A program made the position numbers and the translations under genes. This document shows, piece by piece, positions 8,835-39,175 of a DNA stretch of 47,761 bases. Position 1 is the stretch's first letter; every line of letters starts with the position of its first letter. Below the pieces are notes generated by a model. That model saw only the letters and a list, made by a program, of their open reading frames with translations. It was not told the origin of the DNA and made no database searches. Source of the stretch: Acidobacteriota bacterium (GTDB taxonomy: Bacteria; Acidobacteriota; Thermoanaerobaculia; Multivoradales; UBA5704); the NCBI GenBank assembly GCA_040005235.1, contig JBDTZG010000043.1:1-47761 (forward strand), written 5' to 3'.

Positions 8835-10373
8835 CTACAAATACCCCAACGACTTGAGCAGCGCCCGCGTTTCGTCGTCCATGTCGCGCCCTTGCGTTGC
8901 GGCGCAGCTCGCCGGCACCTGGGTGTCGGTTTCGGCGTTCAGGTGGGGGGCTCGGTCCCAGGCCCAGAGCTCTTTTTTGAGGCGCTCCAGGTCGTCGGGG
9001 TATTTGTCGGCAACGTTTTGGGTCTCGCCGGGATCGTTTTGGAGGTCGTAGAGGGTGAAGCGGATGCCTTCGCCGCCGATCCAGCGTTGCTCGGGGCGGG
9101 TCTGGGCGAAGATCAGCTTGAAGCGTTTGTCGCGGACGACCTTCTGCCATTTGTTGTCGGTTTCCCAGCCGGATTCGGAAAACGACGTGGCGACGGGCCG
9201 GACCCAGGGGTCGCTCTCTTTAGCTGGCGGCGCGGCGGGCAGCTCGATGCCGCGCAGGCGCGGGGTGAGGGAGTGCCCTTGGAGCGGCACGGTGGCGGGT
9301 AGGGTTCCGCCGGCCGCTTCGAGCAGGGTGGGGGCCAGATCGACCAGCTCGACCGGATCGCGGTCGACGCGCGGCGCGAGCACTTGCGGGTAGTGGACGA
9401 TCAGCGGTACGCGCAGGCAGGTCTGGAAGCTGAAGCGGCCGTGGTCGAAGTAGTAGCCGTGCTCACCGAGCGATTCGCCGTGGTCGGCGGTGAAGACGGT
9501 CAAGGTCTTGCTGAACATCTGGCGTCGCTTCATCTCGTCGAGCAGGCGGCCGATCTGGGCGTCGTTGTAGGAGATCTCGGCGTCGTAGCGGGCGCGGTAG
9601 AACGCCAGATCGGTGTGCCCTTCGAGCACCTGCTTCTGGCCGATGCCCATCATCTGCTGGTTGGGTTTGGCAACCACTTCGATCTTGGCGGTGGGATCGA
9701 AATGCTCATCGCCCTGGAACTTCGTCGCGTACTCCCCCGGCGGGGTGTAGGGCGCGTGCGGATCGAGGTAATGAACCCAGAGGAACCAGGGCTTGCCCCC
9801 TTTCGACGATTTGTCGAGCTGGGCGAGCAGCCCCTCGGCCAGCTTGGTCACCGCCTCGGCGCCGTTCGGGTCTTTGGTCGGGTCGGCGGCGCCGCCCTCG
9901 CCGGGATGATTGAGCTTCCAGGTTTCGATGTAGACGTCGAACCCCTGATCGAAATGAAACTCGCTGCCCAGGGCACCGTTCGCCACCACCGCCGCGGTCG
10001 CGTAGCCCTGGCGCTGGAGGTTTTCTGCGAGGGTGGTGAATTTGCACGAGAGCGGCACGCCGACCTTCCTCACCATGCCGTTGTCCTTGGCGTAGGTGGA
10101 GGTGAACATCGAAGCGAACGAGGGCGTGGTCTTCGGCCACTGGACACTCACCTGGTCGAAGCGCACCCCTTCGGCGGCGAGCCGGTCGATGTTTGGCGAG
10201 GTCTTTCGCTCGTAGCCCCAGGCGGAGAGGTGATCGGCGCGCAGCGTGTCGACCGTGATCAACAGGATGTTGCTCTTGGCCGGCAGCGGCTCTACCTTCG
10301 GCGCTTCGGGGCGGCAGCCGGCGGCGAGGAGCGCGGCGGCGCAGAACAGAGAGGTACGGCGGCGATGGGTCAT
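8835..10373 (-). CDS. Sulfatase-like hydrolase/transferase lipoprotein (alkaline phosphatase superfamily)
   Basis: True start MTHRRRTSLFCAAALLAAGC (lipobox). Motifs NILLITVDTLRADHL, TTPSFASMFTS, WVHYLDPHAPY, TADHGE, LYDLQNDPGE and C-terminal LKSLGYL. The ORF-track extension to 12788 overlaps the NRPS and is spurious. Confidence 0.9.
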   Translation of the reverse strand: MTHRRRTSLFCAAALLAAGCRPEAPKVEPLPAKSNILLITVDTLRADHLSAWGYERKTSPNIDRLAAEGVRFDQVSVQWPKTTPSFASMFTSTYAKDNGMVRKVGVPLSCKFTTLAENLQRQGYATAAVVANGALGSEFHFDQGFDVYIETWKLNHPGEGGAADPTKDPNGAEAVTKLAEGLLAQLDKSSKGGKPWFLWVHYLDPHAPYTPPGEYATKFQGDEHFDPTAKIEVVAKPNQQMMGIGQKQVLEGHTDLAFYRARYDAEISYNDAQIGRLLDEMKRRQMFSKTLTVFTADHGESLGEHGYYFDHGRFSFQTCLRVPLIVHYPQVLAPRVDRDPVELVDLAPTLLEAAGGTLPATVPLQGHSLTPRLRGIELPAAPPAKESDPWVRPVATSFSESGWETDNKWQKVVRDKRFKLIFAQTRPEQRWIGGEGIRFTLYDLQNDPGETQNVADKYPDDLERLKKELWAWDRAPHLNAETDTQVPASCAATQGRDMDDETRALLKSLGYL

Positions 10374-10471
10374 ATTGGAGGATTCTCGGGGAGTCGCACG
10401 ATGGACGCCGCTCGCCGTCAGGCGGTGAGCGGGCGCCGATCTTAGCCTAGACGGCCGGCAATCCCCGGGGC

Positions 10472-13400
10472 CTACGCCCCGACCGGCTCTCCCACGGGAC
10501 GAAGCGCGTCTTTCTGGGCTCCGGACATCGCCTGGAGGCGGAGCACGGCGCGGGCGATCTTTTCGGCCCGGCCCGGCTGGGGGTCGAAGTGGGCGATCTG
10601 GGCGGCGAAACCTTCGAGCGTCGGCTGCTCGAACAGCGCGCGCAGGGGCAGCGCGACCTGGAGCAGTCGCTCGGTCCGGGTTGCGAGCTGCGCGCCGAGG
10701 AGCGAATGGCCGCCGAGCGAAAAGAAGCTCGATTTGCGACCGATCCGCTCGACCGGGATTCCCAACACCTCCGACCAGAGCCGCGCCGAAAGCTGTTCGA
10801 GCGGGCCCGCCGGGGCGTCGAGCGCTTCGTCCGACGACCTCGCGACCGCGGGCAGCGCGGCGGATCGGGGGGTCCGGCTCCAATCGACTCGCAGCTGTCG
10901 GCGCTCCGCCTCGTCGAGCGCGGCCAGCTCGAGCGCCGGCCGATCCGGATTGGCCATGGCGCGGCCGATCAGCGCGGCGAGCTCGCCCGACCAGCGCTCG
11001 ACCGTCTCGCGGTCGAAGAGGTCGAGCGGGTATTCGATCGAGCCGCCGAGCCGGCCGTTGCGGTCCGCGAGACCGAGCGATAGATCGAACTTGGGCTGCG
11101 CGAAAGGAAGGTCGATCTGCTGAAACGAGAGGCCCGCCGATTCGAGCTTCGGCTCCGGGGTGTTGAGATAGGAGAACAATGCCTGGAAGATCGGCGTGAC
11201 GCCGAGATTGCGGTCGGGCTGCAGCTCCTCGACCAGGCGCTCGAACGGTAGGTCTTGATGGGCGAACGCGTCGAGCGCCGCCTGCCGCGCCCTGCGGATC
11301 AGCTCGCGGAACGACGGTTCGCGGGTCTCCGCGGAGAGGCGGGAGAGCATGAGCCGAATCGCCAGGGTGTTGACGAAAAAGCCGATCAAACCGGTGATTT
11401 CGGCCCGATTCCGGTTGGCGATCGGCGTGCCGACCACCAGGTCCGAAACCCCGGCGTAGCGGCCGAGGAACAGGCTCCAAGCGGCGAACAGGACCATGAA
11501 CGGCGTTGCGCGCTCCGCGCGGGCGAGCGAGCGTAGCGCCTCGGCCGTCTCCGGCGGCAGCTCGAAGTCCGCCCGGCCGCCGCGTGGCGTGCGCTCCCGC
11601 GGACGCGGCCGGTCGAGCGGCAAGTGCAGTTCGGGGGGCGCTCCGGCGAGCGAATCGCGCCAGAAGGCGAGCTGGCGATCCAGCTCCGGCCCCGAAAGGA
11701 ATGCGCGCTGCCAGACGGCGAAATCGGCGTACTGGATCGGCAGCGGAGGAAGCTCCGCGGGCTTGCCCAGCACCGCCGCCGCGTAGAACGCGGCCGATTC
11801 GGCGACCAGGATCGACGACGACCAACCGTCCGAGACGATGTGATGAAGGTTGAGCAGAAGCGCCTGATCGTCCGCCGCGAGCCGCACCGCTAGCGCGCGC
11901 AGAAGAGGACCGCGACGAAGCGAAAACGGCCGTGCCGATTCGGCCAGCAGCACGCGCAATAGCTCGGCCTCGCGGACCGGCTCCGGGCAGGCGGCAAGAT
12001 CGATCTTCGGCAGGGCCACCGGGGCGGGCGGCGAGATGCGCTGGACCGGCCCTTGTTCCGTCGGCGTAAACGTCGTCCGCAGCGCCTCGTGGCGGGCGAC
12101 CATCGCGGCGAGCGCAGCTTTCATGGCGGCGGGAAAGAACCGGCCGCGAATGCGCAACGAAGTCGGGATGTGGTACGCCGGATCGCCCGCGACGTCCGGC
12201 GTGTCCGCCTCGCCGGCTCCGCCTGAACCGAGCCGGTCGAGCACCCAGAGGCGGCTTTGGGCGAAGGACAGGGGCAGCGGATCGGGACGGACCGGGAGGC
12301 GCGGGATCGCGCGCGCCGAAGGACCGGCGGTTTCGGCGAAGTCCGTCTCCTCCGCCCTTACTGGGATCACCGGAGAGCCCCCGGCGAGGCTCTCGGCGAC
12401 GACGGCCAGAGTGGGGCTCTCGAACAACGTGCGGAGCGAGATCTCGACCTCGAACACGCGCTCGATCTGCAGCGCCAGTTGAACCGCGAGCAGCGAATGC
12501 CCACCGAGATCGAAGAAGCTCGATTGGCGGCCGATCTGGGCGAATTCGACGCCGAGCAGCTCGGCCCAAATCCGCGCCACCGTGCGCTCGACGGCTGAGG
12601 CCGGCGGCTCGAACGGCGGCGTTTCCTCCTTGGCCAGGACCTGAGTTCGGACGTGCGCGGCAGAATCCGCCGGCTCGGCCCGCTCGCGAGCCGTGCGCAA
12701 GAAACCCAACTGCGGGGAAAGGCCCCAGATCGGCCGGTCGGGCGCCGCGACGGCCGAGCGGATCAACTCCACCAGCTCCCTCTGCCAACCGGCCACGGTC
12801 GCGTCGGCGAACAGATCGGTCGCGTAGTCGAGCGACGCCGTGTACCTGCCACCCTGGTCGACGATCCCGAACCCCAGGTCGAATTTCGCGACGACCGTCG
12901 GCAGGTCGATCGGCTCGAAAACGAGCCCGGCCGCCTCCAAACGCGGCTCCGGATTATTCAGGAACACGAAGAGCGCCTGAAAGATCGGCGTCGCCCCTGG
13001 TCGGCGCGGCGCTTTGATCTCCTCGACCAGGCGCTCGAACGGCAGATCCTGATGGGCGAACGCGCCAAGCGCGGTCCGGCGGGCGCGACGCACCAGCTCG
13101 CGAAACGAAGGGGTAGTGGTTGCGTTGGCCTCCTCGCTCCTTCGGGCGCCTTCGGCAGCAGCCAGTCGCTGCGGGGCCAACGAAACCACTACCTCCCCCG
13201 GAGCGCCCAGCCCGATTCGCAGCGGCAGCAGGTTGGCGAACAGGCCGATCAGCCCGGCGGTCTCGGCGCGGTTTCGGTTGGCGATCGAAGTGCCGATCAC
13301 CACGTCATCCGCCTCCGCGAGCCCGCCGAGGAACAATCCCCAGGCGGCGAGCAGGACCATGTAAGGTGTCGCCCCTTCGGCGCGGGCAAGATCGCGGATC

Positions 13401-14287
13401 GCTTGGACGATCTCGGGCGCGAGATCGAAAGCCTGCGCCCGGCCGCGGCCCGAGGGCGAACCCCGGCGCTCCAGGTCGTGCGGCACGGTCAGCTCGGGCG
13501 GCGCCCCGGCGAGCGCGCCGCGCCAGTAGCCGAGCTGACGTTCGAGCTCCGCGCCGGTCAGATACCGCCGCTGCCAGACCGCGAAATCGGCGTACTGAAT
13601 CGGCAGCGGCGCCAGTTCCGCACGCGCACCATTGCCGGTTACCGCGGCGGTGTAGAGCGCCGTCGCCTCGGCGACCAGGATCGAAGCCGACCAGCCGTCC
13701 GAGACGATGTGGTGGAGGTTGAGCAGCAGCGCCTGGTCGTCGCTCGCGAGGTCGGCGAGCAACGCCCGCAACAGCGGTCCGTGGGCGAGCGAGAAGGGCC
13801 GAGCGGCCTCGGCGAGGAAGACGCGAGAAAGCTCGAACCCACGCGCCGGCTCCGGGCAGGCGGAAAGATCGATCCGCGGCAGCGGCACCGCTGCGAGCGG
13901 CGCGATGCGCTGCACCGGGCCCTCCTCGGCGATCGGAAAGGTCGTGCGCAGGGCCTCGTGGCGCGCGACCACGCCGCCGAGCGCCCCGGCCATCGCGGCC
14001 GGCGCGAACCGGCCGCGGATCCGCAGCGCGGTCGGAATGTGGTAGGTCGAATCGCCCGGATTCAAACGATCCATCAGCCACAGGCGGCCCTGGGAGAACG
14101 ACAGCGGCAGGGGCCCGAAGTCGGGCGGCAGGCGCGGGATCACCCCGGAAGCGGGCGTCCGTCCTCCGGCCGGTTCCGCGTTTCCCGCGCTCGCGTCGTT
14201 CGGCGGCGCCGGACCGCGGGCGCGCATTTTCTCGAACAGGCGCGCCTTCTCCTCGCGCGACAGGCCCGCGAACCGATCGCCGCTCAT
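10472..14287 (-). CDS. NRPS subunit 3: C-T-C-T, two adenylation-less modules, no TE
   Basis: N-terminal docking-like helix (LSREEKARLFEKMR), two closely similar C domains each with LHHIVSDGWS, two PCPs (FFDLGGHSLLA, FFSLGGHSLLG). No A3 (TSGSTG) or A5 (YGPTE) motifs and no GxSxG thioesterase. Confidence 0.9.
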   Translation of the reverse strand: MSGDRFAGLSREEKARLFEKMRARGPAPPNDASAGNAEPAGGRTPASGVIPRLPPDFGPLPLSFSQGRLWLMDRLNPGDSTYHIPTALRIRGRFAPAAMAGALGGVVARHEALRTTFPIAEEGPVQRIAPLAAVPLPRIDLSACPEPARGFELSRVFLAEAARPFSLAHGPLLRALLADLASDDQALLLNLHHIVSDGWSASILVAEATALYTAAVTGNGARAELAPLPIQYADFAVWQRRYLTGAELERQLGYWRGALAGAPPELTVPHDLERRGSPSGRGRAQAFDLAPEIVQAIRDLARAEGATPYMVLLAAWGLFLGGLAEADDVVIGTSIANRNRAETAGLIGLFANLLPLRIGLGAPGEVVVSLAPQRLAAAEGARRSEEANATTTPSFRELVRRARRTALGAFAHQDLPFERLVEEIKAPRRPGATPIFQALFVFLNNPEPRLEAAGLVFEPIDLPTVVAKFDLGFGIVDQGGRYTASLDYATDLFADATVAGWQRELVELIRSAVAAPDRPIWGLSPQLGFLRTARERAEPADSAAHVRTQVLAKEETPPFEPPASAVERTVARIWAELLGVEFAQIGRQSSFFDLGGHSLLAVQLALQIERVFEVEISLRTLFESPTLAVVAESLAGGSPVIPVRAEETDFAETAGPSARAIPRLPVRPDPLPLSFAQSRLWVLDRLGSGGAGEADTPDVAGDPAYHIPTSLRIRGRFFPAAMKAALAAMVARHEALRTTFTPTEQGPVQRISPPAPVALPKIDLAACPEPVREAELLRVLLAESARPFSLRRGPLLRALAVRLAADDQALLLNLHHIVSDGWSSSILVAESAAFYAAAVLGKPAELPPLPIQYADFAVWQRAFLSGPELDRQLAFWRDSLAGAPPELHLPLDRPRPRERTPRGGRADFELPPETAEALRSLARAERATPFMVLFAAWSLFLGRYAGVSDLVVGTPIANRNRAEITGLIGFFVNTLAIRLMLSRLSAETREPSFRELIRRARQAALDAFAHQDLPFERLVEELQPDRNLGVTPIFQALFSYLNTPEPKLESAGLSFQQIDLPFAQPKFDLSLGLADRNGRLGGSIEYPLDLFDRETVERWSGELAALIGRAMANPDRPALELAALDEAERRQLRVDWSRTPRSAALPAVARSSDEALDAPAGPLEQLSARLWSEVLGIPVERIGRKSSFFSLGGHSLLGAQLATRTERLLQVALPLRALFEQPTLEGFAAQIAHFDPQPGRAEKIARAVLRLQAMSGAQKDALRPVGEPVGA
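13112..13193. repeat. REP-like inverted repeat within an NRPS C domain
   Basis: GGTAGTGGTTGCGTTGGCC (13112-13130) / GGCCAACGAAACCACTACC (13175-13193), 18/19 match. Corresponds to the extra peptide EVVVSLAPQRLAAAEGARRSEEANATTT, absent from the paralogous C domain. Confidence 0.75.
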
Positions 14288-17200
14288 CGCACCTCCTCTG
14301 CGAGCAGCTCGGCGAACATGCCGTCGTCGAGCGCCGCCAGCTCGCGTACGACGATCCGGTCGGCGAGATCGCCGAGATCGCGCGCGTCGAACACCTCCTG
14401 GAGCGGCACCGCGACTCCGGCGCGCGCTTCGAGCTCGGCGACGAAGCGAGTCGCGAGCAGCGAATGGCCGCCGAGGTCGAAGAAGTTGTCGCGCATGCCG
14501 ACCCGCGCGAGTCCCAGCACCTCGGCGGCGACCGTGGCGATCTGGGCTTCGAGCTCGCTCGCCGGCTCGACGTGGCCGCTCGCGACGGCCACGTCGGGCG
14601 CCGGCAGCGCGCGCCGGTCGAGCTTGCCGTTCGCCGTCAAGGGGAGCGCGTCGAGCACCACGATCGCCCCCGGTACGAACGGCTCCGGCAGCCGCGCCGC
14701 GAGCCGGACCAGGACGTCGCGGGCGATCTCTTCCTCGCTCTGGCCGGCCCGACCGGAGACGCCGAGGTGGCGCAGTTTGTCGAGGTTCAAGGCATCGTCG
14801 CGCAACGCGACGTAGGCGACCAGGCGGCGATCGCCGGGGCGGTCTTCGCGCACGATCGCCACCGCCTCGCGCACCCTCGCGTCGGCGAGCAAGGCGGACT
14901 CGACCTCCCCCAGCTCGATACGGAAGCCGCGGATCTTCACCTGGCCGTCGCGCCGCCCTTGGAATTCGAGCACGCCCTCTCGATTCCAGCGCACGACGTC
15001 GCCGGTGCGATAGAGCCGGCCGCCGGAGCGGTCGAGCGAATCGGCGAACGGATCGGGGACGAAACGCTCGGCGGTCAAGTCGGGCCGGCGCAGGTAGCCG
15101 CGCGCAATCCCTTCGCCCCCGGCGTACAGCTCGCCCCAGGCACCCGCCACGACAGGCTCCAGATCGGCATCGAGAACGTAGACCCGGGCGTTGCTGATCG
15201 GCCTGCCGATCGGCATCGGATCGGGCACCTCGGCAGGATCGCCGACGCCGAAGCAGCAGGTGAACGTCGTCCCCTCGGTCGGCCCATAGCCGTCGATCAG
15301 CCGGCCGGGGGCGAGATCGGCGACCGCCTGCCGGACCGGCCCGGGCGACAGGGCGTCACCTCCGGCGAGCAGCTGCGAGAGCGCCGGCAACCCGGCGAAG
15401 CCGTAATCCGCCATCGGATGGAACAAGCCCGCGGTGAGCCAGAGGGTGGTCACCTGGAACCGCGCGAGGGTGCGTTTGATCTCCGCTGGAGAGAGCGGCC
15501 CCGAAGGGGCCAGCGCGATCCGGCCGCCGTTGAGCAGCGGTCCCCAGATTTCGAGCGTCGAGGCGTCGAACGCGATCGGCGCGAACAGCAGGAAGACGTC
15601 GCCGGTACCGAAGCGGATGTAGTCGGTGTCGCGCACCAGGCGGATGACGTTCCGGTGCGTGACCCAGACCCCTTTCGGCCTCCCTGTCGAGCCGGAGGTG
15701 TACATCACGTAGGCGAGGCTGTCGGCGCTCGGCCGCTCCGGCCGGCCGTCGAGCGCGGCGAAGAAGCCCCCCTCGGCATCGGCATCGAGCGGCATCTGCA
15801 CCGCGGCGAGCGAGGCGACCGACGAGGGGAGCTCGTCGAGCGCGGCGCGGCGACCGAGCAGGATCGCGGCGCCGCAATCTTCGAGCAGCAGCGCCTGGCG
15901 TTCCGGCGGGTAGGTCGGATCGATCGGCACGTAGCAGCCGCCCGCGGCGAGGATGCCGAGAATGCCCACCAGGGTTTCGGGCGCGCGTTCGGCGAGGATC
16001 GCGATCGGCATTTCGAGCGACACGCCGAGACCGGCGAGCCGGCGCGCGAGCTTCATGGCGCGGCGGCCGAGCTCGCCGTAGCTGATCGCGAGCGAGGCCC
16101 CTGCCTCGTCACCTTCGGCCTCTCCTTCGATCGCGATCGAGTCGGGGGTTTCCAGAACCTGCTCGGCGAACAGCTGAGCGATCGAAGCGTCGCGCGGAAA
16201 CGCCGTGGCGGTTTGGTTGCGCTCGACGAGCAGCACCCTCCTCTCCGGCTCCGCCAGCAGCGGCAGGGCCGAAAGACGGACGTTGCGGTCGGCGACCGCC
16301 GCGGCGAGAAAGTCGGCCAGCCGCTCGACCACACGGTGGATCGTCGCCTCCTCGAACAGCGCCGTCGCGTACTCGAACAGGCCGCGGATGCGCCCCGCGT
16401 CGCGCCCCGCGACCACCGTCAGATCGAACTTCGAGGTGCCCGAATCGGCGGGCTGCGGCGATAAGTGGAGAGCGCCGAGATCAGCTTCCGGAATGGCCGC
16501 GTTCTGCCAGGTCAGCACGGCCTGGACGATCGGCGGCCGGCTCCGGTCGCGCGCGGGTTTCAGCTCCTCGACCAGCTTTTCAAACGGCACGTCGCGATGG
16601 GCGTAGCCGTCGAGCGCCTCGGCGCGCACCCGCGCGAGCAGCTGGGCGAACGTCGGATCGCCCGAAGCGTCGATCCGCAGGGGAAGCGTATTGATGAAGA
16701 AGCCGATCAACCCTTCGAGCTCTGCCGCGTCGCGGTTCGCGATCGTGGTGCCGAGCACCAGGTCGCGCACCCCCGCCCACCGCGCGAGCACCGCCGCCCA
16801 AGCCGCAAAGACGAGCATGAAGTCCGTGGCGCCCTCGGCGCGCGCGAACGCGAACGCCGAGGCCGACAGGTCCTCGGGCAAGTCGATTCGCAGAGCTGCC
16901 CCAACGAGGCTCTGGAGCGCCGGCCGCGGCCGATCGGTGGGCAGGTCCAGGGCCTCGGGAGCGTCGCCAAGCCGCGAACGAAAATGGCCCACCTGGCGTT
17001 CCAGCTCAGGACCTTGGAGCCAGCCGCGCTGCCAGGCGGCGAAATCCGGATATTGGATGGGGAGCGCCGGCAGCTCCCACGAGGTCCGGCCCGCGACCAG
17101 CGCGCGATAGACCGCCGTCGCCTCGCGCACCAGGACCCCCATCGACCAGGCGTCCGAAACGATGTGATGCATCACCAGGAGGAACAGGTGCAGCTCCGGC

Positions 17201-20200
17201 TCGGCGCGCACCAGCGCCACGCGCAGAAGCGGCCCGCGCGCGAGATCGAACGGCCGCACCGCGGCCTCGTGCGCGATCCGCCGCTCCTCAAATTCGGCCC
17301 TGCGACCGAGCGCCGCAAGGTCGATCGAAGGCAACCGGAAACGTCCCGCCGGGGCGATCACCTGCACCGTCCGGCCGTCCGCCGCGACGTCGAATGTGGT
17401 GCGTAGCGCCTCGTGCCGCGACACCACCACGCCGAGCGCTGCGCCGAACGCGTGGGGATGTAGCGGCCCGCAGCAACGGATCGCGAGCGGCAGGTTGTAC
17501 ACCGCCCCGCCCGGTGCCATCCGGTCGAGGAACCAGAGGCGCTCCTGGCCGAACGAGAGCGGCAACGGGCCGCCGCGATCGATGCTTGAGAGGAGCCGCC
17601 GGGCGCCAGAGGCTCCTGGCGGGTCGTCCAGCCCCGCGTTGCCGGCCGCCGCGTCGAGCGCCGCAGCGAATCGGGCGAGGGTCGGGAACTGGAAGAACGA
17701 GCGCACCGGCACCGGCTTGTCGAGCAGATGGGCCAGCCGGTGCGCCACCTGGGCCGCGAGCAGCGAATGGCCGCCGAGGTCGAAGAACGAATCGTCCGCG
17801 CCGATCGGAGCGGCGTCCTGGTCGATGCCGAGCACCTCGGCCCAGACGTCGGCGACCAAGAATTCCGTGGTGGTGGACGGCGGCATCCAGAGCCCGCCGC
17901 CGCTTGAGGCGCCCGCATCGGGCGCCGGCAGCGCCGCGCGGTCCAGCTTGCCGTTGGTATTTCTCGGCAGGGCGGGCAGCAGCACGAACGCGCCAGGCAC
18001 GAACGCCTCGGGCAGCGCCGCGGCGAGAAACTCGCGCAGCTCGGCGGTAGAAGGCGCGGGCTCCGGCCCGGCGGAGACGACATAGGCCACCAGGCGCGTG
18101 CTCTTTTCATCCGCACCCCCTGGAATCGCCGGGCCGTCGTTGCGCGCGACGACCGCCGCCTCGGCCACCTGAGGGTGGCGCCTTAGCGCGTCTTCGATCT
18201 CGCCCGGTTCGATCCGCACGCCGCGAACCTTGACCTGGAAGTCCAGGCGGCCCTGGTATTCGACCGCGCCTTCGGCCAAGCGGCGGACCCGGTCTCCGGT
18301 CCGATAGAGCCGGCTGCCCGGCGCGCCGTAAGGGTCGGGTACGAAGCGCTCTGCCGTAAGCGACGGCCGCCCCAGGTAGCCGCGCGCCAGTTGCACGCCG
18401 CTCAGGTACAGCTCGCCGGAGACGCCGACCGGCGCCGGGTAGAACGACCGGTCGAGCACATGCACCGCGGTATTGGCGACCGGAAAACCGATCGGCACTT
18501 TAGGGACAGGACCGGTCGGCGGGCAGGGCCAGAACGTGACGTCCACCGAGGCCTCGGTCGGACCGTAAAGGTTGTGCAGCTCCACTCCTAGAAACCGCCG
18601 CCGGAACCGCTCGACCAGATCCGGGGCGAGCGCCTCGCCGCTGCATATCACCCGCTTAAGCGACGGGAACGCGCCAAGATCGGGCGCATCGAGAAAGTCG
18701 CGGAGCAACGACGGCACGAAGTGCAGCGTCGTGATCTTTTGCTCGCGAATCGTCGCCGCGAGATAGGAGGGATCGCGGTGCCCCTCGGGCTTCGCCACCA
18801 CCAGGCAGGCGCCGACGGCCAACGGCCAGAACAGCTCCCAGACCGACACGTCGAAGCTGAACGGGGTCTTTTGCAGCACTCGGTCTTCGGCGCCGAGCCG
18901 GTAGGCCGACTGCATCCAGAGCAGCCGGTTGCGAATGCCCGCGTGCGGCACCATCGCGCCCTTCGGCCGGCCGGTCGAGCCGGAGGTATAGATCACGTAA
19001 GCGAGGTTCGCGCCGTCGATTCGGCTCGGCGGCGGCAGGGTGGCCGAGTTCGGGGCGCCCGGGGCGAGCAGCTCCGTGCGGCTGCCCGCGGGCAGCGAGG
19101 CGGCGAGATCGGCCCGGCTCAACACCGCGGCGGGGCGCGCGTCCGCGAGGAGAAAGGCCAGTCGCTCCTCTGGGTAGGTCGGCTCCAAGGGCAGATAAGC
19201 CGCCCCGGCCGCGAGCACGCCGTAGAGCGCCACCACCATCTCCAACGAGCGATCCAGCAGCACCCCGACGACCGCGTCTTGCCGGACCCCCAGGCGCCGC
19301 AACCGCCAGGCGAGCGCGTTCGCTCGGAGTGCCAGCTCGCGGTAGGTCAGGCGCTCCTCGGAAAAGACCACCGCGGGGGCGTCGGGCGTACGCTCGCACT
19401 GCGCCGCGAACAGTTCGTAAAGGTTTCCATGGGCGCCCCCGGGCCAGCGCACCGCGGTGTCGTTCCATTCCGTGACGATCTGATGGCGCTCGCTCGGGGC
19501 GATCAGCTCCAGCTCGGAAAGCGGGCGCTCCGGCGCCGCGATCCCCGCCGCGATCAGCGCTTCGAGCCCGCGCTGCAAGCGCGCCACGGTCGCCGCCTCG
19601 AACACGTCGAAGTTCCACTCCAGGCGGCCGCGGATGTCGTCCGGCCATTCGTACAGGCCCCACAGCAGGTCGAACCGGCTGTTGCCGTCGTGGACCTCGA
19701 TCGCCTCGAACTTGAGGTCGGGCAACTCTTCGGTGGTGAAACTCTTGTCGAGCAGCAATGCGGCCACCTGAATGATCGGCGCGCGCCCGGTCGTCCGCTC
19801 CGGCTCCAGGGCATCGACCAGGCGGGTGAACGGCACGTCTTGATAGTCGAACGCGTCGGTTCCCGAGCGGCGGGTCCGCGTCACCAGCTCGACGAACGAC
19901 GGATCCGCCGAGAGATCGATCGGAATCGCCAGCTGGGTGATGAAGAAGCCGAAGATCTGTTCGAGCTCGGGCTGGGTGCGGTTGGCGCTTGGCGTGCCGA
20001 TGATCAACCGCTCCTGGCCCGAGAACCGGTGCAGCACCGCCGCGATCCCGGCGACCAGGACCATGAACGAGGTCGCTCCGGCGCGGCGCCCGAGCTGGCG
20101 CCAGGCCTCGGGCGCCGCGCTGCCGAAACCAACCTCATGGCGCCCGCCGCGCAGCGATTGGACCGGCGGCCACGGACGATCCGCGGGCAGATCGACGAAC

Positions 20201-23200
20201 AGCGGCACGCCATCGAGCGCCTGGCGCCAATGGGCGAGCAGCCGATCGAGCGCCTCGCCTCGCAGCCAATCGCGCTGCCAGAGCACGAAGTCGGGATACT
20301 GAACCGGCGGCTCGCGCAGCGGCGAGGGGAGGCCGCGGCGATAGGCGTCGTAGATCGCCGCCAGCTCCTTCCAGAAATACTGGAAGGTGATCCAATCGGT
20401 CACCGTGTGATGGACGGTGAGCAGGCAGATGTGATCGCGCGGCGCAAGTCGCAGCAGCTGCAGTCGCGCGAGCGGCCCGCGGTCGAGCGCGAAAGGGGTC
20501 CGGCTGTCGATCAGCTGAATGCGCAGCGCGGTCGCCTCGCCCGCCGGACCCGGCAGCGCCGAGAGGTCGATCGCGGGCATCAGCACCGGCGCCCAGGGCA
20601 GCACGCGCTGGACGACGACGCCGTCTTCTTCCGGAAAGAAGGTGCGCCAGGCGGCGTGGCGGCGGAAGATCTCCTGAGCCGCGGCGTAGAGCGCCGACAG
20701 GTCGACCACGCCGCGCATCCGCGCTCCGAGGTCGATGTTGTAGGCGGTGCCCCCGGGCTCCAGCTGATCGAGAAACCAGAGCCGTTCCTGGTCGAACGAC
20801 AAGGGCCAGTCGCCCGCGCCGTCTTGCGGCGTCACGCGGACGATCCGCGGCGGGGTCGGCGGGCCGGTCGGCTCTTCGGCGCCGAGCCGTTCGCCGTCGA
20901 TCCGCGCCCCGAGCGCCGCGACGGTCGGCGCGTCGAAGATGGCGGTGATCGGCAGCTCGAAGTCGAGCCGGGTACGCACCGCGGTCGCGAGCTGGATCGC
21001 CAAGAGCGAATGGCCGCCGAGCGCCAGGAAGTCGTCGTCCCTGCCGATCTCCGCGATGCCGAACAGCTCCGACCAGACGCCCGCGAGCGCCGTTTCGGTC
21101 GGGCTCCGCGGCGCGACGTACGGCGTCGCGAGGAGCCGTGCCGCCCGCTCGCCCGCCGGCTGGACGCCGAACGTAGCCAAGCGGCTGAGCGCGGCGGCAT
21201 CGACCGTCGCATCGTCGCGTAGCACGGTGGCAAAGTCGCGCGCCGAAACCACCAGCGACGGCACCCCGGCCGCGAGCAGGCGGATGAACGCCTCCGCGCT
21301 CTCGCCGGGCGGCGTCGCCACCGGGCTCAAAGGGCTGAGATCACCGCCGGCCGAACCGGTCAGCTGGCCGACCCCGGCCGCGAGCCAACCGCCCCACTGG
21401 TACGGATCCCAGAGCGGCGCGAACGCCCGCCGGCCGGAAGCCGCAAGCTGCTCGGCGAGGCACGCCTGGAAAGCGCCCGCGGCGGCCAATTCGAGCTGGC
21501 CGAAACTGCCGGTGGCACCTAGATTCGAAGGGAAGAACGCGAGGAACGCTTGGCGGTCGTCGTCCAGCAGATTCGCCCAACGGCGCGCCGCCGTGAAATC
21601 GGGCGCGAGTGCCCCGGCGAGCGCGCCGGGCTCCAAAAGCGCCGCGAGGCCGCCACCCGCACCGCTCGCGGTGTGGCAGACCCCGGCCAACCGGCCGAAC
21701 CGCGCCCGCGCGAGTTTCAGCGCGCGTTCCGGCTCGTCGGTCGAGCCGCGCCAGATCTCGGTCGCGCGCGAGGCGGCGAGCAGCGCGCGGGCGGCGGCCT
21801 CCTCGCCCGATCCCACGGCCCCCCTCGCGATCGCCTCCCACTCCCCTTCCGCCGGAAAATCCGGCGGCAGCAGCAGCGCGAGCCGCGCTCCGCGCAGGGC
21901 CAGCGCCTCGGCGAGCGCCGGCCCGACGCCATTCGCCGCGTCGGTGATCAGGATCGGCGCACCCGGCGCAAACGCCGCCGGGGGTTCGCGGCGCTCTAGG
22001 CGGACCGGCTGCCATACACGTACCCAGCGCGAACGACCGCGCCGGGCGATCAGGTCGGCCGCCCGGTCGGCCGGCGCGAGCGCCTCGGCCAGCAGGGCGT
22101 CGAGCGACGCTTCTACGGAAATGTCCGCCGCGAGGTCGAGAGCGCGCACCGCCCCGTGCGGCAGCTCGCGGCCGACGACGCGGAACGCCGCGGCGAGCGC
22201 CGCAAACTCCGGATCGCGCGGCTCCTCATCGGTTACCGCGAGCAGGCCGGACCCCACCAGCAGCAGATCCACCGGCAGCGCGCCGAGCGCATGGGCGAGA
22301 CGGCACAGCGCACCCAGCTCGCCGGCCACGTCGGGCGCGCCGAATCCGCCGAGCACGACGATCCGTCGAGGCGCCCGCTCCTCGATCAGCTCGACCCAAG
22401 GTTCGAGACGCAGCGGCTCCTCCGGTCGCACGATCGAGACTTCGGCCCCCGCCTGTTCCAAGCGCTGCGCGAGGGGCTCGGCGAGATCTTCGAAACCTCC
22501 CCCAGCCACCACCAACCAGGGCCCCGAGGCGGCCAGATCGGCGGGCGTGGGCACGTCCGGCGCGAGCGTTCGAGAGAGATCGGGCAGCGAGAACCATTCG
22601 GCGACGTCTCTTTTTTCGCCGATGCCCCCGGTCGCCACAGGGCGGACGAAACCGAGCGCGCCGTCTTTCGGCGCGTCGATCCAGTAGCGCTGCCGTTCGA
22701 ACGGATAGCTCGGCAGATCGACGATCCGCCGTCGCTCGCCGGCCCAAAGCGCCGAGGGCTCGAACGCGGCGCCGAGTGTCCAGAGCCGGGCGACCGCGCC
22801 GAGCAGCGGCGAGAAATCCGAGCCCCCTTCGCTCGCCCGCCGGACCGTCGAGATCGCGACCAGCTCGGCGGTCGCCGCCGGATGTTGGCGCGCGAGCGCG
22901 CCGAGCGTCGCCCCCGGCCCGACCTCGACGAGGATGCGCCGTGGCTCGACGAGCAGCTCACCGAGGGACTCGGCGAAGCGCACGGTGCCGGTCATGTGGC
23001 GCGACCAGTAGGCGGGGTCGGCGAGATCCTCCGGGCCGATCCAGGAGCCGGAAACGTTCGAAAGGCGCGGGATCTCCGGTTCCGTGGAATCGAGCCCGCG
23101 CACCAGCTCGGTCAGCCGATCGCCGAGCGGCGCCAGCGCCGGGGAATGGAACGCATGCGTGGTCGAGACCGGCAGGCAGGCGACCCCGTTTTCGGCGAGC

Positions 23201-25470
23201 CGGCGACCCGCCTCCGCGATCTCATCCGGCGGCCCCGAAAGCACCGAGAGATGCGGCCCGTTGGTGGCGGCGAGGGCGACCGACTCGGAAAGGTAGGGCG
23301 CCGCCTCCGCCGCGGGGAGCGGCACCGCGAGCATCGATCCAGCGGGCAGCTCGGCGATCCACCGCGCTCGTGTGGCGACCAGGCGCGCGGCGGCGGCGAG
23401 CGGCAGCGCACCCGAGACGTAGGCCGCCGACAGCTCGCCGAGGCTGTAGCCGACCAGGGCGGAAGCCTTCACGCCCCAGCGCTCGAGCAGCCGCGCAAGC
23501 GCCACCTCGACCGCGAACAGCGCGGGCTGAGCCCGTTCAGTTGGCGCGAGATCGCCGGCGGGCTCCGCTCCGCCGCGACGGAGCATCGCGCGTAGATCGA
23601 GACCTGTAGTTGACACGGCCGGAGCCGTACCGCCGAACAGCAGATCGCGAAGGTCGAATTCCAAATGGCTGCCGAGCGCCGCGGCCACCCGGTCGAATTC
23701 CTCGCGGAAGGCCGGCTCGGCGTCGTAGAGACCGCGGGCGAATCCGGGATATTGATCGCCGAGACCGGGAAACAGGAAGGCCACCGGCCGCCCGCCGTCT
23801 GAATCCGTGCCCGCCCCTTCGTCGATGGCGCCGTCGAGCCAGCGGCCCCGATCGCGCAAAGCTGCGGCGGCGGCGGCCGCGTTGGAGGCGACCACCGCCC
23901 TGCGAAATTTAAACGCCCGCCGGCCGACGGCGAGCGTCCAAGCTACGTCCGCAAGATCCGTCTCCGGGTGCGCCGCGAGGTAATCGGCCAGCCGCTCGGT
24001 CATGGTTTCGAGCGCCTGGGGGCTGTTCGCCGACAGGAACAACGGCTGGAGCGGTCGCGGCGAGGTTTCAGCCGGCAACGGCTCGGGCGCCTGTTCGAGC
24101 ACCGCGTGGACGTTCGTGCCGCCGAGCCCGAACGAACTGACCCCCGCGCGGCGCGGTCCGGCCCCGGCGGGCCAGGGCGTGGCCGAAGTCGGCACGTAGA
24201 ACGGGCTTGCGGCGAGATCGACCTCCCGGTTCGGCCGTTCGAAATGGAGCGTCGGCGGGATCGTCGCGTGCTCGATCGCGAGAGCGGCGCGCGCCAGGCC
24301 GGCCAAGCCGGCGGCGCTGTTGGCGTGGCCGAAATTCGATTTCGCCGAGCCGACGGCGCACCAGCCGGTGTCCTGCGAATCGGCGCGGAACGCCTGGGAG
24401 AGCGCCGCGATCTCGATCGGGTCGCCGATCGGCGTGGCGCTGCCGTGCGCCTCGACGAATGCGACGTCGCGCGCCGAGACCTCCGCCAGCCCGAGCGCTT
24501 CGGCGATCGCCTGCGCCTGCCCCTCGACGCTCGGAGCGGTGAACCCGACCCTTGAGGATCCGTCATTGTTGGTCGCGGTTCCCCGGATCACCGCGCGCAA
24601 CGGCCGGCCGGCGGCGCGCGCCCGATCGGCGCGTTCGAGCACCGCGACGCCAACGCCGGAGCTGGGCACCGTCCCCTCGGCGCGCGCGTCGAAGCTCCGG
24701 CAATGCCCGTCGGGCGACAGGATGTCGCCCTGCGAGTAGCGATACCCGCCGACCAGCGGCACGGCGATCGAGCTGCCGCCCGCGATCGCCACGTCGCACT
24801 CGCCCGCGAGCAGGCTCTGGCAGGCCAGGTGGACCCCGAGCAGAGCGGTCGAGCAGGCCGACTGGACGACCACCGCGGGGCCTTTCAAGTTCAGCTCGTA
24901 GGCCAGCCGGCTGGCGAGGAAATCGCGATCGTTCAAGATCATCGCCTGCAGGATGCCGCCCGACTTGAGCGCCTCGGCGTTCGGCAGGATGTTCGAGATC
25001 AGATAGCCGTCCACACCCGAGCCGACGAAGACACCGATCCGCTGCCCCTGGGCATCGAAGCGGCCGGGGTCGATCCCCGCCGCGTCGAGCGCCTCCCAGG
25101 CGACCTCCAGCAGCAGCCGGTGCTGCGGATCGGTCAGCTCCGCCTCGCGCGGCGTGAAGCCGAACAGCGCGGCATCGAAGCGGTCGGCGCCGTCGATCAT
25201 GCCCCGCGCCTTGACGTAGCTGGGATCAGCGATCTCTGCTTCGCTCACCCCTGCCGCCCGCAGCTCGTCGTCGCTCAAGCGCACGATCGTCTCCCGGCCG
25301 GCCGCGAAATTCGCCCACAGCGCCTCGACCGTGCTCGCGCCGGGGAAACGCACGGCGAAGCTCAGAATGCCGATTCCGCCCGGATCCGAATCGTCGTCGG
25401 GACGGGAGTCGAAAGCCGCGTCGCGGGCGCTCTTGGGCAGGTCGGGGGCGTCGGCCGGATTCGAATTCAT
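14284..25470 (-). CDS. Hybrid PKS-NRPS subunit 2: KS-AT(malonyl)-KR0-ACP-C-A(Ser)-T-C-A(Val-like)-T
   Basis: KS triad QSACS / EAHGS / FGHAN. AT GYSLG and HAFHS. Degenerate KR (LITDAANGVG). ACP LGGHSL. C motifs HHTVTDW and HHIVSDA. Hand-read A codes DVWHISLVDK (Ser-type) and DALWLGGTFK (Val-type). ATG at 25470 with GAGGAA RBS; stop overlaps the next ATG. Confidence 0.92.
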   Translation of the reverse strand: MNSNPADAPDLPKSARDAAFDSRPDDDSDPGGIGILSFAVRFPGASTVEALWANFAAGRETIVRLSDDELRAAGVSEAEIADPSYVKARGMIDGADRFDAALFGFTPREAELTDPQHRLLLEVAWEALDAAGIDPGRFDAQGQRIGVFVGSGVDGYLISNILPNAEALKSGGILQAMILNDRDFLASRLAYELNLKGPAVVVQSACSTALLGVHLACQSLLAGECDVAIAGGSSIAVPLVGGYRYSQGDILSPDGHCRSFDARAEGTVPSSGVGVAVLERADRARAAGRPLRAVIRGTATNNDGSSRVGFTAPSVEGQAQAIAEALGLAEVSARDVAFVEAHGSATPIGDPIEIAALSQAFRADSQDTGWCAVGSAKSNFGHANSAAGLAGLARAALAIEHATIPPTLHFERPNREVDLAASPFYVPTSATPWPAGAGPRRAGVSSFGLGGTNVHAVLEQAPEPLPAETSPRPLQPLFLSANSPQALETMTERLADYLAAHPETDLADVAWTLAVGRRAFKFRRAVVASNAAAAAAALRDRGRWLDGAIDEGAGTDSDGGRPVAFLFPGLGDQYPGFARGLYDAEPAFREEFDRVAAALGSHLEFDLRDLLFGGTAPAVSTTGLDLRAMLRRGGAEPAGDLAPTERAQPALFAVEVALARLLERWGVKASALVGYSLGELSAAYVSGALPLAAAARLVATRARWIAELPAGSMLAVPLPAAEAAPYLSESVALAATNGPHLSVLSGPPDEIAEAGRRLAENGVACLPVSTTHAFHSPALAPLGDRLTELVRGLDSTEPEIPRLSNVSGSWIGPEDLADPAYWSRHMTGTVRFAESLGELLVEPRRILVEVGPGATLGALARQHPAATAELVAISTVRRASEGGSDFSPLLGAVARLWTLGAAFEPSALWAGERRRIVDLPSYPFERQRYWIDAPKDGALGFVRPVATGGIGEKRDVAEWFSLPDLSRTLAPDVPTPADLAASGPWLVVAGGGFEDLAEPLAQRLEQAGAEVSIVRPEEPLRLEPWVELIEERAPRRIVVLGGFGAPDVAGELGALCRLAHALGALPVDLLLVGSGLLAVTDEEPRDPEFAALAAAFRVVGRELPHGAVRALDLAADISVEASLDALLAEALAPADRAADLIARRGRSRWVRVWQPVRLERREPPAAFAPGAPILITDAANGVGPALAEALALRGARLALLLPPDFPAEGEWEAIARGAVGSGEEAAARALLAASRATEIWRGSTDEPERALKLARARFGRLAGVCHTASGAGGGLAALLEPGALAGALAPDFTAARRWANLLDDDRQAFLAFFPSNLGATGSFGQLELAAAGAFQACLAEQLAASGRRAFAPLWDPYQWGGWLAAGVGQLTGSAGGDLSPLSPVATPPGESAEAFIRLLAAGVPSLVVSARDFATVLRDDATVDAAALSRLATFGVQPAGERAARLLATPYVAPRSPTETALAGVWSELFGIAEIGRDDDFLALGGHSLLAIQLATAVRTRLDFELPITAIFDAPTVAALGARIDGERLGAEEPTGPPTPPRIVRVTPQDGAGDWPLSFDQERLWFLDQLEPGGTAYNIDLGARMRGVVDLSALYAAAQEIFRRHAAWRTFFPEEDGVVVQRVLPWAPVLMPAIDLSALPGPAGEATALRIQLIDSRTPFALDRGPLARLQLLRLAPRDHICLLTVHHTVTDWITFQYFWKELAAIYDAYRRGLPSPLREPPVQYPDFVLWQRDWLRGEALDRLLAHWRQALDGVPLFVDLPADRPWPPVQSLRGGRHEVGFGSAAPEAWRQLGRRAGATSFMVLVAGIAAVLHRFSGQERLIIGTPSANRTQPELEQIFGFFITQLAIPIDLSADPSFVELVTRTRRSGTDAFDYQDVPFTRLVDALEPERTTGRAPIIQVAALLLDKSFTTEELPDLKFEAIEVHDGNSRFDLLWGLYEWPDDIRGRLEWNFDVFEAATVARLQRGLEALIAAGIAAPERPLSELELIAPSERHQIVTEWNDTAVRWPGGAHGNLYELFAAQCERTPDAPAVVFSEERLTYRELALRANALAWRLRRLGVRQDAVVGVLLDRSLEMVVALYGVLAAGAAYLPLEPTYPEERLAFLLADARPAAVLSRADLAASLPAGSRTELLAPGAPNSATLPPPSRIDGANLAYVIYTSGSTGRPKGAMVPHAGIRNRLLWMQSAYRLGAEDRVLQKTPFSFDVSVWELFWPLAVGACLVVAKPEGHRDPSYLAATIREQKITTLHFVPSLLRDFLDAPDLGAFPSLKRVICSGEALAPDLVERFRRRFLGVELHNLYGPTEASVDVTFWPCPPTGPVPKVPIGFPVANTAVHVLDRSFYPAPVGVSGELYLSGVQLARGYLGRPSLTAERFVPDPYGAPGSRLYRTGDRVRRLAEGAVEYQGRLDFQVKVRGVRIEPGEIEDALRRHPQVAEAAVVARNDGPAIPGGADEKSTRLVAYVVSAGPEPAPSTAELREFLAAALPEAFVPGAFVLLPALPRNTNGKLDRAALPAPDAGASSGGGLWMPPSTTTEFLVADVWAEVLGIDQDAAPIGADDSFFDLGGHSLLAAQVAHRLAHLLDKPVPVRSFFQFPTLARFAAALDAAAGNAGLDDPPGASGARRLLSSIDRGGPLPLSFGQERLWFLDRMAPGGAVYNLPLAIRCCGPLHPHAFGAALGVVVSRHEALRTTFDVAADGRTVQVIAPAGRFRLPSIDLAALGRRAEFEERRIAHEAAVRPFDLARGPLLRVALVRAEPELHLFLLVMHHIVSDAWSMGVLVREATAVYRALVAGRTSWELPALPIQYPDFAAWQRGWLQGPELERQVGHFRSRLGDAPEALDLPTDRPRPALQSLVGAALRIDLPEDLSASAFAFARAEGATDFMLVFAAWAAVLARWAGVRDLVLGTTIANRDAAELEGLIGFFINTLPLRIDASGDPTFAQLLARVRAEALDGYAHRDVPFEKLVEELKPARDRSRPPIVQAVLTWQNAAIPEADLGALHLSPQPADSGTSKFDLTVVAGRDAGRIRGLFEYATALFEEATIHRVVERLADFLAAAVADRNVRLSALPLLAEPERRVLLVERNQTATAFPRDASIAQLFAEQVLETPDSIAIEGEAEGDEAGASLAISYGELGRRAMKLARRLAGLGVSLEMPIAILAERAPETLVGILGILAAGGCYVPIDPTYPPERQALLLEDCGAAILLGRRAALDELPSSVASLAAVQMPLDADAEGGFFAALDGRPERPSADSLAYVMYTSGSTGRPKGVWVTHRNVIRLVRDTDYIRFGTGDVFLLFAPIAFDASTLEIWGPLLNGGRIALAPSGPLSPAEIKRTLARFQVTTLWLTAGLFHPMADYGFAGLPALSQLLAGGDALSPGPVRQAVADLAPGRLIDGYGPTEGTTFTCCFGVGDPAEVPDPMPIGRPISNARVYVLDADLEPVVAGAWGELYAGGEGIARGYLRRPDLTAERFVPDPFADSLDRSGGRLYRTGDVVRWNREGVLEFQGRRDGQVKIRGFRIELGEVESALLADARVREAVAIVREDRPGDRRLVAYVALRDDALNLDKLRHLGVSGRAGQSEEEIARDVLVRLAARLPEPFVPGAIVVLDALPLTANGKLDRRALPAPDVAVASGHVEPASELEAQIATVAAEVLGLARVGMRDNFFDLGGHSLLATRFVAELEARAGVAVPLQEVFDARDLGDLADRIVVRELAALDDGMFAELLAEEVR

Positions 25471-25495
25471 AAGTTCCTCGGTATCTATAGTGCAG

Positions 25496-39175
<13,680 letters not shown>

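Follow-up and report, generated by a model that had tools for sequence, protein, structure and literature searches.

Loss of adenylation domains from a FAAL-primed nonribosomal peptide synthetase-polyketide synthase line in Thermoanaerobaculia and the probable charging of its C-T modules by other modules

We analyzed a 47,761-nt stretch of DNA (the window), which is the whole of contig C117 in a 6.22-Mb draft genome (G000; 140 contigs) of a soil acidobacterium. The element studied is a nonribosomal peptide synthetase (NRPS)-polyketide synthase (PKS) assembly line encoded by three genes, whose products P0001, P0002, and P0003 are listed with their domains in Table 1. An initial annotation, made from the sequence letters, had placed the line in an under-explored phylum, which fits a protein of the same genus, P0012 (G007:C677), labelled by NCBI as Thermoanaerobaculia bacterium, in Acidobacteriota. 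No stop was present among the 9573 codons of the three genes. The GTG start of P0002 gives a 20-nt overlap with P0001, and an alternative ATG lies 45 nt further in. Pfam searches detected four AMP-binding (one of them the FAAL), four Condensation, and five PP-binding domains in P0001; KS, AT, a weak KR, two Condensation, two AMP-binding, and three PP-binding domains in P0002; and two Condensation, two PP-binding, and no AMP-binding domains in P0003. Pfam, domain-seed placement, and profiles built from the window's own domains agreed on the architecture FAAL-ACP / C1-A1-T1 / C2-T2 / C3-A3-T3 / C4-A4-T4 // KS-AT-KR-like-ACP / C5-A5-T5 / C6-A6-T6 // C7-T7 / C8-T8 (C, condensation; A, adenylation; T, carrier). 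Five complete C-A-T modules and a KS-AT-ACP module are accordingly found in one co-directional gene set, and three of the eight NRPS modules (modules 2, 8, and 9) are A-less.

The catalytic His motifs of C2, C7, and C8 are whole, and T2, T7, and T8 all carry the carrier motif (Table 1). The initial annotation had stated that three of the eight NRPS modules lack an A domain, with intact condensation and carrier Ser motifs in uninterrupted genes, and the open reading frames, Pfam matches, and motifs bear this out. A six-frame A-domain profile search detected no A remnant in other frames of the window. No stand-alone A, thioesterase (TE), MbtH, or phosphopantetheinyl transferase (PPTase) gene was found within the window, and no epimerization (E) domain was present as a separate domain by position, as no C-like domain follows any T domain in the line. 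These absences had also been listed by the initial annotation; its gene inventory had missed two alpha/beta-hydrolase-type genes and a sulfatase gene. The line has no terminal release domain (TE, R, or terminal C): P0003 ends with a T domain and a 43-residue tail, as do the orthologs seen, and the PF00975 matches in the genome sit on contigs other than the window. At the start of the line, a FAAL and an ACP precede a starter-type C domain. The best NCBIfam names for the FAAL were fatty-acid--AMP ligase families (E 4.7e-137, below the curated cut-off), and C1 grouped with this genome's other C domains that follow FAAL-like domains in a genome-wide C tree (support, 99). The KR-like region matched PKS KR chains of the PDB weakly (E 1.6e-4 and 6e-3) and is kept in the related genomes G003 and G001; its KR activity is uncertain, and on inspection by eye its NADPH-binding and Tyr motifs seem to depart from the canonical form.

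Table 1. Genes, domains, and deletion scars of the assembly line and the adjacent genes (window positions)
Feature	Position	Strand	Basis or remark
P0001	25496-39175	(-)	4559 aa, frame free of stops
P0002	14284-25515	(-)	3743 aa, frame free of stops
P0003	10472-14287	(-)	1271 aa, frame free of stops
FAAL loading domain (P0001 aa 30-610)	37346-39088	(-)	Pfam AMP-binding + PF23024
Loading ACP	37076-37303	(-)	fifth PP-binding of P0001, between FAAL and C1; limits approximate, from translation
C1, lipo-initiation (starter-type)	35705-37027	(-)	domain placement + profiles
A1, code DAI?QGQVIK	34184-35626	(-)	profile + code extraction
T1	33932-34117	(-)	domain placement + profiles
C2 of A-less module 2 (HHLICDG)	32546-33859	(-)	domain placement + profiles
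Module-2 deletion scar	32396-32545	(-)	C-A linker fused to A10 remnant, ..SINEGEL/LPNGKIDRRALP..
T2 (GGHSLL)	32210-32395	(-)	domain placement + profiles
C3	30791-32131	(-)	domain placement + profiles
A3, code DLFNNALTYK, sole A of the window's Ala block	29207-30721	(-)	code extraction
T3	28934-29110	(-)	profiles
C4	27440-28840	(-)	domain placement + profiles
A4, code DGE?RGVVIK	25880-27370	(-)	profile + code extraction
T4, then basic C-terminal tail	25640-25813	(-)	profile + translation
KS	24238-25374	(-)	Pfam PF00109 + PF02801
AT (HAFH motif)	22885-23778	(-)	Pfam PF00698
KR-like region	21403-21954	(-)	Pfam KR, E 7.9e-10
PKS ACP	20908-21087	(-)	profiles
C5	19480-20805	(-)	profiles
A5, code DVWHISLVDK	17926-19401	(-)	code extraction
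T5	17665-17856	(-)	profiles
C6	16237-17562	(-)	profiles
A6, code DAL?LGGTFK	14602-16098	(-)	code extraction
T6	14359-14541	(-)	profiles
C7 of A-less module 8 (HHIVSDG)	12734-14107	(-)	domain placement + profiles
T7 (GGHSLL)	12392-12580	(-)	domain placement + profiles
C8 of A-less module 9 (HHIVSDG)	10895-12274	(-)	followed by scar, not A
Terminal-module deletion scar	10787-10894	(-)	..RQLRVDW/SRTPRSAAL/PAVA..
T8 (GGHSLL)	10604-10786	(-)	orthologous to relatives' terminal T
43-residue C-terminal tail after T8	10475-10603	(-)	kept in six of six genus genomes aligned and in P0004 to P0007
Abhydrolase_2 esterase gene	39335-39994	(-)	Pfam E 4.2e-26; just upstream of the FAAL gene
Sulfatase-family lipoprotein gene	8835-10373	(-)	Pfam Sulfatase E 1.4e-54; 98 nt downstream of P0003
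Secreted alpha/beta-hydrolase-like gene	7588-8778	opposite to sulfatase gene	

Ten-residue specificity codes were extracted from a profile alignment anchored on A3, in which position 278 is uncertain. We take A3 to be specific for Ala, A5 for Ser, and A6 for Val, and the HAFH motif of the AT to be of the malonyl type; A1 and A4 are left without assignment. The order given by the initial annotation, X-?-Ala-X-malonyl-Ser-Val, agrees with the extracted codes, the amino acids being putative assignments.

We compared the line with seven further genomes of the genus (G001 to G007). Orthologs of P0003 were found in five of them (62-77% identity), with the whole cluster in G003 and most of it in G001; in G002 and G004, the P0003 query gave only ~47% matches, and the cluster was not found with that query. 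The G003 line, in whose cluster no TE was found, reads FAAL-ACP (separate gene) / C-A-T / C-A-T / C-T / C-T / C-A-T // KS-AT-KR-ACP / C-A-T / C-A-T // C-T / C-T / C-A-T. Its FAAL-ACP apparently occupies its own 709-aa stop-to-stop frame (G003:C36:59804-61930) beside the first NRPS frame (46286-59800), and in the window FAAL-ACP is fused to C1. The A-less C2 is 82% identical to G003 C2, which has an A domain, and T2 is 84% identical to its G003 counterpart. Conversely, C3, which has an A domain, is 76% identical to the A-less C3 of G003; A3 is 77% identical to the G003 module-2 A domain, which has the same code, and the best match of T3 is G003 T4 (68%), whose module is A-less. At the end of the line, the A-less C8 is 80% and 75% identical to the terminal C domains of G003 and G001, both of which are followed by an A domain, and T8 is 89% and 95% identical to their terminal T domains. 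The last module is C-A-T in four of the five same-genus orthologs (G001, G003, G006, and G007), whereas the orthologs of C7 are A-less too in G003 (78%) and G001 (70%). The repeated A-domain loss proposed by the initial annotation is thereby confirmed for modules 2 and 9, whose C domains are orthologous (82% and 80%) to those of same-genus modules with A.

Both losses left a readable scar. In an alignment of the five same-genus orthologs, the C-A linker (..RRQLRVDW) of the window's last module passes through nine residues directly into the A-T linker, at a site occupied in G001, G003, G006, and G007 by a full A domain (approximately 520-540 residues). Relative to G003 module 2, the window's module 2 lacks 469 residues in frame between ..KSI.EGEL and LPNGK.DR and retains the A10 remnant LPNGKIDRRALP. 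Both deletions are in frame and span the C-A linker to the A10 motif with the A-T linker retained; the scar ends share only 4-8 nt of microhomology, and the flanks are not repeats of one another. The A-domain losses in modules 2 and 9 are real, lineage-specific, clean in-frame deletions. Module 8 may represent an older loss or a C-T duplication, because none of the relatives seen has an A domain there and the module is paralogous to module 9. In G005 (C74:1267-2478, L097), the A domain of the last module is degenerate, with Glu in place of the A3-motif Lys, an altered A5 region, and a loss of ~100 residues that include A8-A10, while the frame remains open into a well-kept T domain and tail. 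This looks like a second, independent inactivation.

The A-free form of the last subunit is also present outside the genomes compared. Three database proteins from different sources (P0004, P0005, and P0006) contain only Condensation and PP-binding domains, arranged C-T-C-T, and align with P0003 over their full length at 91, 87, and 83% identity with an identical junction. Their catalytic motifs, HHIVSDG(W) and GGHSLL, are invariant, and none is truncated; P0007 (78% identity) is C-T-C-A-T. The shared terminal junction indicates one deletion older than the divergence of at least four lineages.

The position of the A domain shifts within the Ala block formed by modules 2 and 3 of the window, (C2-T)(C3-A-T). 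The corresponding block is (C2-A-T)(C3-A-T)(C4-T) in P0140 and (C2-A-T)(C3-T)(C4-T) in G003, P0180, and P0214, and at least one A domain with the code DLFNNALTYK is retained in the block in five of the five proteins seen. The block's A domains all group in a single clade (support, 100), and C2 is sister to C3 in the genome-wide C tree (support, 100). A3 pairs with the module-3 A domain of P0140 and not with the module-2 A domains (SH-aLRT 94), from which it follows that the window and G003 retain different A copies. Among the window's C domains, C7 and C8 are 64% and C2 and C3 48% identical, with 28-50% for other pairs; the C and T domains inside a block are paralogs. The A domain lost from the last module has the code DLFNCALTYK in four of four intact same-genus orthologs and is alike at 9 of the 10 positions with A3 (DLFNNALTYK), which lies on a different subunit.

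We next asked how common A-less modules are. Of the 78 strong C domains of this genome, 7 lead straight into a T domain, three in the window and four on contig C84. In five further loci, two or three successive C-T units stand between complete modules, and the number of units differs between the C84 locus (two) and its G002 counterpart (three). Across 77 loci of other species' genomes, C was followed by T in 4 cases, by A in 229, and by other sequence in 21; these loci are paralog-level relatives (<50% identity, one genome per species), and 3 of the 77 have any C-T module. Within the family, 92 genomes were surveyed with a query from the end of C8 to T8, and the 150 matches listed (471 more lay beyond these) were counted by hand, a junction being taken as covered when a match ran contiguously in one frame from query residue ≤6 to ≥229. 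Approximately 84 of the listed matches cover the C-to-T junction, in at least 49 of the 92 genomes, including all eight of the genus. A-less C-T modules are rare in general and common in this family.

Contig C84 (L114, 21531 nt in whole) consists of one 7176-aa frame (P0127), open at both contig ends, with four A-less modules in the order A-T-[C-T][C-T]-C-A-T-[C-T][C-T]-C-A-T... The Pfam list of P0127 includes a sulfotransferase domain, PF13469, probably in a 1.1-kb gap after the Ser module, and PF13469 or PF00685 is listed for many NRPSs of the family. On contig C91, three strong C domains (about 12974-14293, 37068-38399, and 45804-47111) are followed by 0.3-1.2 kb without an assigned domain and then by a weak C-like domain before an A domain with a ~0.8-kb insert; these regions are possibly cyclization or epimerization-like domains with methyltransferase inserts.

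We propose that the locus encodes a working FAAL-primed, non-collinear NRPS-PKS line, probably making a lipopeptide of about eight residues and one malonyl unit, in which the C-T modules would be charged by A domains of other modules. An A domain would charge all carriers of its block, upstream and downstream. Modules 2 and 3 would form one Ala block in which A3 charges T2 and T3 within P0001, giving Ala-Ala. In the last subunit, C7-T7-C8-T8, a single ancient in-frame deletion removed the Ala-like A domain, and T7 and T8 would be charged in trans, most plausibly by A3. The product predicted on this model is acyl-X-Ala-Ala-X-(C2 unit)-Ser-Val-Y-Y for a line of the window type and acyl-X'-Ala-Ala-Ala-X-(C2 unit)-Ser-Val-Y-Y-Y for one of the G003 type. 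The chain would be released by a hydrolase acting in trans or through a partner docking on the conserved C-terminal tail. Block-wide charging fits best because the modules are organized in blocks, the A domain can sit at different positions in them, the A-less parts are conserved, and stand-alone A genes are lacking, and charging in trans by A3 is proposed since the lost code is one position from that of A3. Pre-existing redundancy in charging would, in addition, account for the terminal A domain having been dispensable on two occasions, by deletion in the window and by decay in G005, and the conservation of the 43-residue tail suggests a docking partner. The non-collinear pathway inferred by the initial annotation remains the best reading, and the charging partners and incorporated amino acids given here are predictions from the sequence.

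The genome-wide search for stand-alone A domains called for by the initial annotation returned, outside the large NRPS genes and apart from weak acyl-CoA-ligase-like matches, one A-T-TE protein and one formyltransferase-A-T-TE protein. No free-standing A or A-T gene serving the line was found in the window or in this search. The A-T-TE-type proteins were considered as loaders of the window's T domains and rejected, as they have no link to the cluster.

The A-less modules could also be functional with a different supplier: the last subunit might be charged by the Val-type A6 or by an Ala-type A domain of another NRPS, giving a Val-Val or other tail. A6-T6 directly precedes C7 in the line, further DLFN-type A domains are carried by contigs C84, C91, and C132 of this genome, and, in the accessible text of the thalassospiramide study, reported cases mostly have an upstream A domain supplying downstream modules (10.1101/560987). 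However, the same block in the relatives has its own Ala-like A domain (DLFNCALTYK) and not a Val-type one, and the C domain partnered with that A domain is paralogous to C7 and C8, so that the acceptor sites of C7 and C8 probably fit the substrate of that A domain. No docking to this line is known for A domains from other clusters. We regard charging by A6 or by a foreign A domain as unlikely.

Selection on the A-less parts was assessed by pairwise Nei-Gojobori ratios of nonsynonymous to synonymous substitution (dN/dS) among G000, G003, and G001. The A-less C domains gave 0.25-0.36 (C7), 0.21-0.25 (C8), and 0.18 (C2), compared with 0.18-0.30 for C domains with their own A domain and 0.17-0.31 for A domains; the A-less T domains gave 0.16-0.51, and T5 and T6 0.06-0.24. 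On the window branch of the three-taxon comparison, the values were 0.32 for C7, 0.24 for T7, 0.24 for C8, and 0.32 for T8 with the tail, and 0.08-0.44 for the six domains of the complete modules from C5 to T6. Neither frameshifts, stops, lost motifs, nor a ratio near 1 was observed (0.06-0.51 throughout). Relaxed selection or decay, which the initial annotation had named as evidence that would overturn its reading, was not seen, the A-less values overlapping those of complete modules. These comparisons indicate that the A-less parts are kept by selection, with no sign of relaxation.

These data bear on the possibility that, in the window lineage, loss of the terminal A domain left the last subunit (and perhaps also module 2) as a non-functional relic whose genes have yet to gather lesions, the line ending at T6 or making nothing, or that the A-less modules are skipped. 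In favor of this, P0003 has no A domain at all, the cluster has no TE, and the G005 A domain is decaying at the same site. Against this, the identical scar is found in four lineages at 83-91% identity with invariant motifs and no truncation, and the window-branch ratios of C7, C8, and T8 (0.24-0.32) lie inside the range of complete modules. T8 and the tail are also among the best-conserved parts (95% relative to G001), and the presence of A-less modules in at least 49 of the 92 genomes of the family would not be expected of junk. We therefore consider a relic, or skipping, improbable, even more so than an alternative supplier.

Assembly was checked against contigs from other samples, a comparison that covers the terminal scar; the module-2 scar (32396-32545) lies outside it. 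Contigs of two samples of one study (runs X1 and X2), one of which may be the source, match 10300-13048 gap-free with 0 differences and span both C-to-T junctions of P0003, and a 332-nt contig from a different study (X4) spans 10595-10926 in the same joined form with 19 differences (94%-like). Contig joints with short sides (20-39 nt) were considered as variants and rejected, being read as cross-matches of NRPS repeats or other organisms. A collapse of repeats in a short-read metagenome bin, to which a draft of 140 contigs whose NRPS contigs elsewhere break at repeats might be prone, as might the uncompared module-2 scar, can be given almost no weight: the two-sample contigs cross both last-gene junctions, a diverged relative from another study and three database proteins from other sources share the terminal form, the junction flanks are not mutual repeats (microhomology, only 4-8 nt), and both scars are in frame with the A-T linker retained, so that an artefact is excluded for P0003 and unlikely for module 2.

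Several points weigh against the charging of the C-T modules by A domains of other modules. The last subunit carries no A domain on the same protein, and A3 is on another subunit, five modules upstream. Likeness at 9 of 10 code positions leaves a common substrate unproven, the amino-acid assignment being putative, and position 278 differs between the hand alignment and the profile alignment. T7 and T8 resemble T3 (42-44%) no more than they resemble other T domains. The SH-aLRT value of 94 for the reciprocal retention of A copies comes from a quick search without bootstraps, P0004 to P0006 were compared as single proteins, and branch-averaged dN/dS would miss a very recent loss of function. Of the two scars, the contig comparison covers the terminal one, and the cluster has no release domain.

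Charging of A-less modules by the A domain of another module is a well-documented principle. In yersiniabactin biosynthesis, the A domain of HMWP2 charges three carriers on HMWP2 and HMWP1, one of them on the other subunit, so that the same residue is reused; that pathway differs from the window line in its cyclization domains, Cys substrate, siderophore product, and TE. SyrB1 of the syringomycin pathway is a stand-alone A domain acting in trans, encoded in its cluster as a separate protein beside a multimodular line with an A-less C-T module. As described in the accessible text of Bushley and co-workers (PMC2644324), ferrichrome synthetases show differential A loss, with a degenerate A domain and T-C repeats charged iteratively. 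The orthologs SidC, NPS2, and sib1 differ, like the lines compared here, by the loss of individual A domains, one being degenerate, and carry tandem A-less C/T units beside a complete module; a single A domain that charges several T domains in a homo-oligomer stretch is proposed there to make up for the loss (PMC2644324). These enzymes are siderophore synthetases of fungi that work iteratively as single proteins and end in C domains, whereas the window line is bacterial, three-subunit, and FAAL-primed, has a whole subunit without an A domain, and gives no indication of a siderophore.

The thalassospiramide lines Ttc ("complete") and Ttm ("incomplete") are also bacterial lipopeptide NRPS-PKS lines whose orthologs differ in the presence of A domains; in the accessible text, their A-less modules are supplied by upstream and downstream A domains, with no stand-alone A gene (10.1101/560987). 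They differ in their alphaproteobacterial origin, in possessing a TE and a trans-AT module, in extending the chain by pass-back, and in having single A-less modules where the window has tandem C-T runs; their mechanism was established by mutagenesis and heterologous expression (10.1101/560987), and that of the window line is a prediction. A parallel in trans is CmnI/VioI of capreomycin and viomycin biosynthesis, an A-less C-T protein charged by CmnA-A1, which, according to the accessible text, belongs to a module of another subunit and also serves its own T domain (PMC12400406). CmnI is a single module using L-Dap, with a measured interaction, whereas two tandem modules would need to be served in the window (PMC12400406). 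The WS9326A line has A-less C-T modules in a multimodular line, as the window does, but with separate A proteins in the cluster, as far as the accessible text describes it (PMC7539972). Our literature search found no paper describing such a cluster or reporting A-less modules from Acidobacteria, and the accessible text of the Angelobacter paper makes no mention of A-less modules (PMC9723581). What is new relative to these systems is the within-genus series of variants, the two-module subunit free of A domains, and evidence for routine use of this design in one Thermoanaerobaculia family.

A broader proposition, which is possible but which we hold only tentatively and would not count on, is that one A domain per homo-oligomer block is a regular rule of NRPS construction in this Thermoanaerobaculia family, a single Ala-type A domain charging four carriers on two proteins in the window lineage, one of these proteins being a two-module subunit that lost its A domain before four lineages separated. 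Under such a rule, paralogous C-T units would form blocks within which A domains are gained, lost, and relocated. If the rule were true, the genus would provide a natural series of deletions, in which blocks hold two A domains, one, or none and the C-T units number two or three, and the rules of A-T recognition for charging in trans, as well as the design of minimal NRPSs, could be read from it. How an A domain finds foreign carriers is poorly understood, and this gap limits NRPS engineering. Here, near-identical natural versions of a line differ almost only in the position or presence of A domains, with clean deletion boundaries, from the C-A linker to A10, in scarred forms that survived speciation; these boundaries and pairings could be carried over into loading assays or minimal-NRPS designs. 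Genome mining from A domains alone would mispredict the length and sequence of the peptide in at least 49 of the 92 family genomes.

We also examined the neighboring and helper genes. The esterase is a possible release or editing enzyme; its region is collinear with that of G003 at 81.6% nucleotide identity. Beyond it lie truA and, on the opposite strand, a DAO oxidoreductase gene and thrA-thrB-thrC. At the nucleotide level, the sulfatase region and its G003 counterpart are 90% identical, compared with 75-82% for the NRPS itself, and the gene adjoins the NRPS end in G003 and G001 too. Because sulfotransferase domains occur in other NRPSs of the family, the sulfatase could conceivably be linked to sulfated peptides. 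Elsewhere in the genome, one helper locus (C73:5295-7218, L113) carries consecutive genes for an MbtH-like protein, a type II TE, and an Sfp-type PPTase, following a histidine kinase/response regulator pair; it is the sole such locus in the genome, and MbtH was matched a second time within a 492-aa frame of C101. The two hydrolase-type neighbors and the type II TE are candidates for chain release. Farther along the contig are a CHAT-domain/STAND NTPase gene (4321-6633, minus strand), a TPR gene (2447-4324, minus strand), a Fic-like/HATPase_c_4 fragment (6534-7418), and, at the contig end, a PadR regulator and a MacB-type transporter fragment. As far as seen, these genes are unrelated to the NRPS.

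Exchange of A domains was also suggested at two complete modules. A1 is 57% identical to its G003 ortholog, which has the code DAW?ARHVVK, and C1 and T1 are 79-84% identical. The low identity of A1 amid a conserved C1 and T1, together with the differing code, suggests that the A domain was replaced in the window lineage, and residue 1 probably differs between species; by eye, the A1 domain of P0140 has G003-type motifs. A5 is 96% identical to G003:C36:38735-40210 with a synonymous divergence (dS) of 0.084, while the flanking C and T domains have dS values of 0.5-0.66, which looks like a recent exchange of the A domain alone between lineages.

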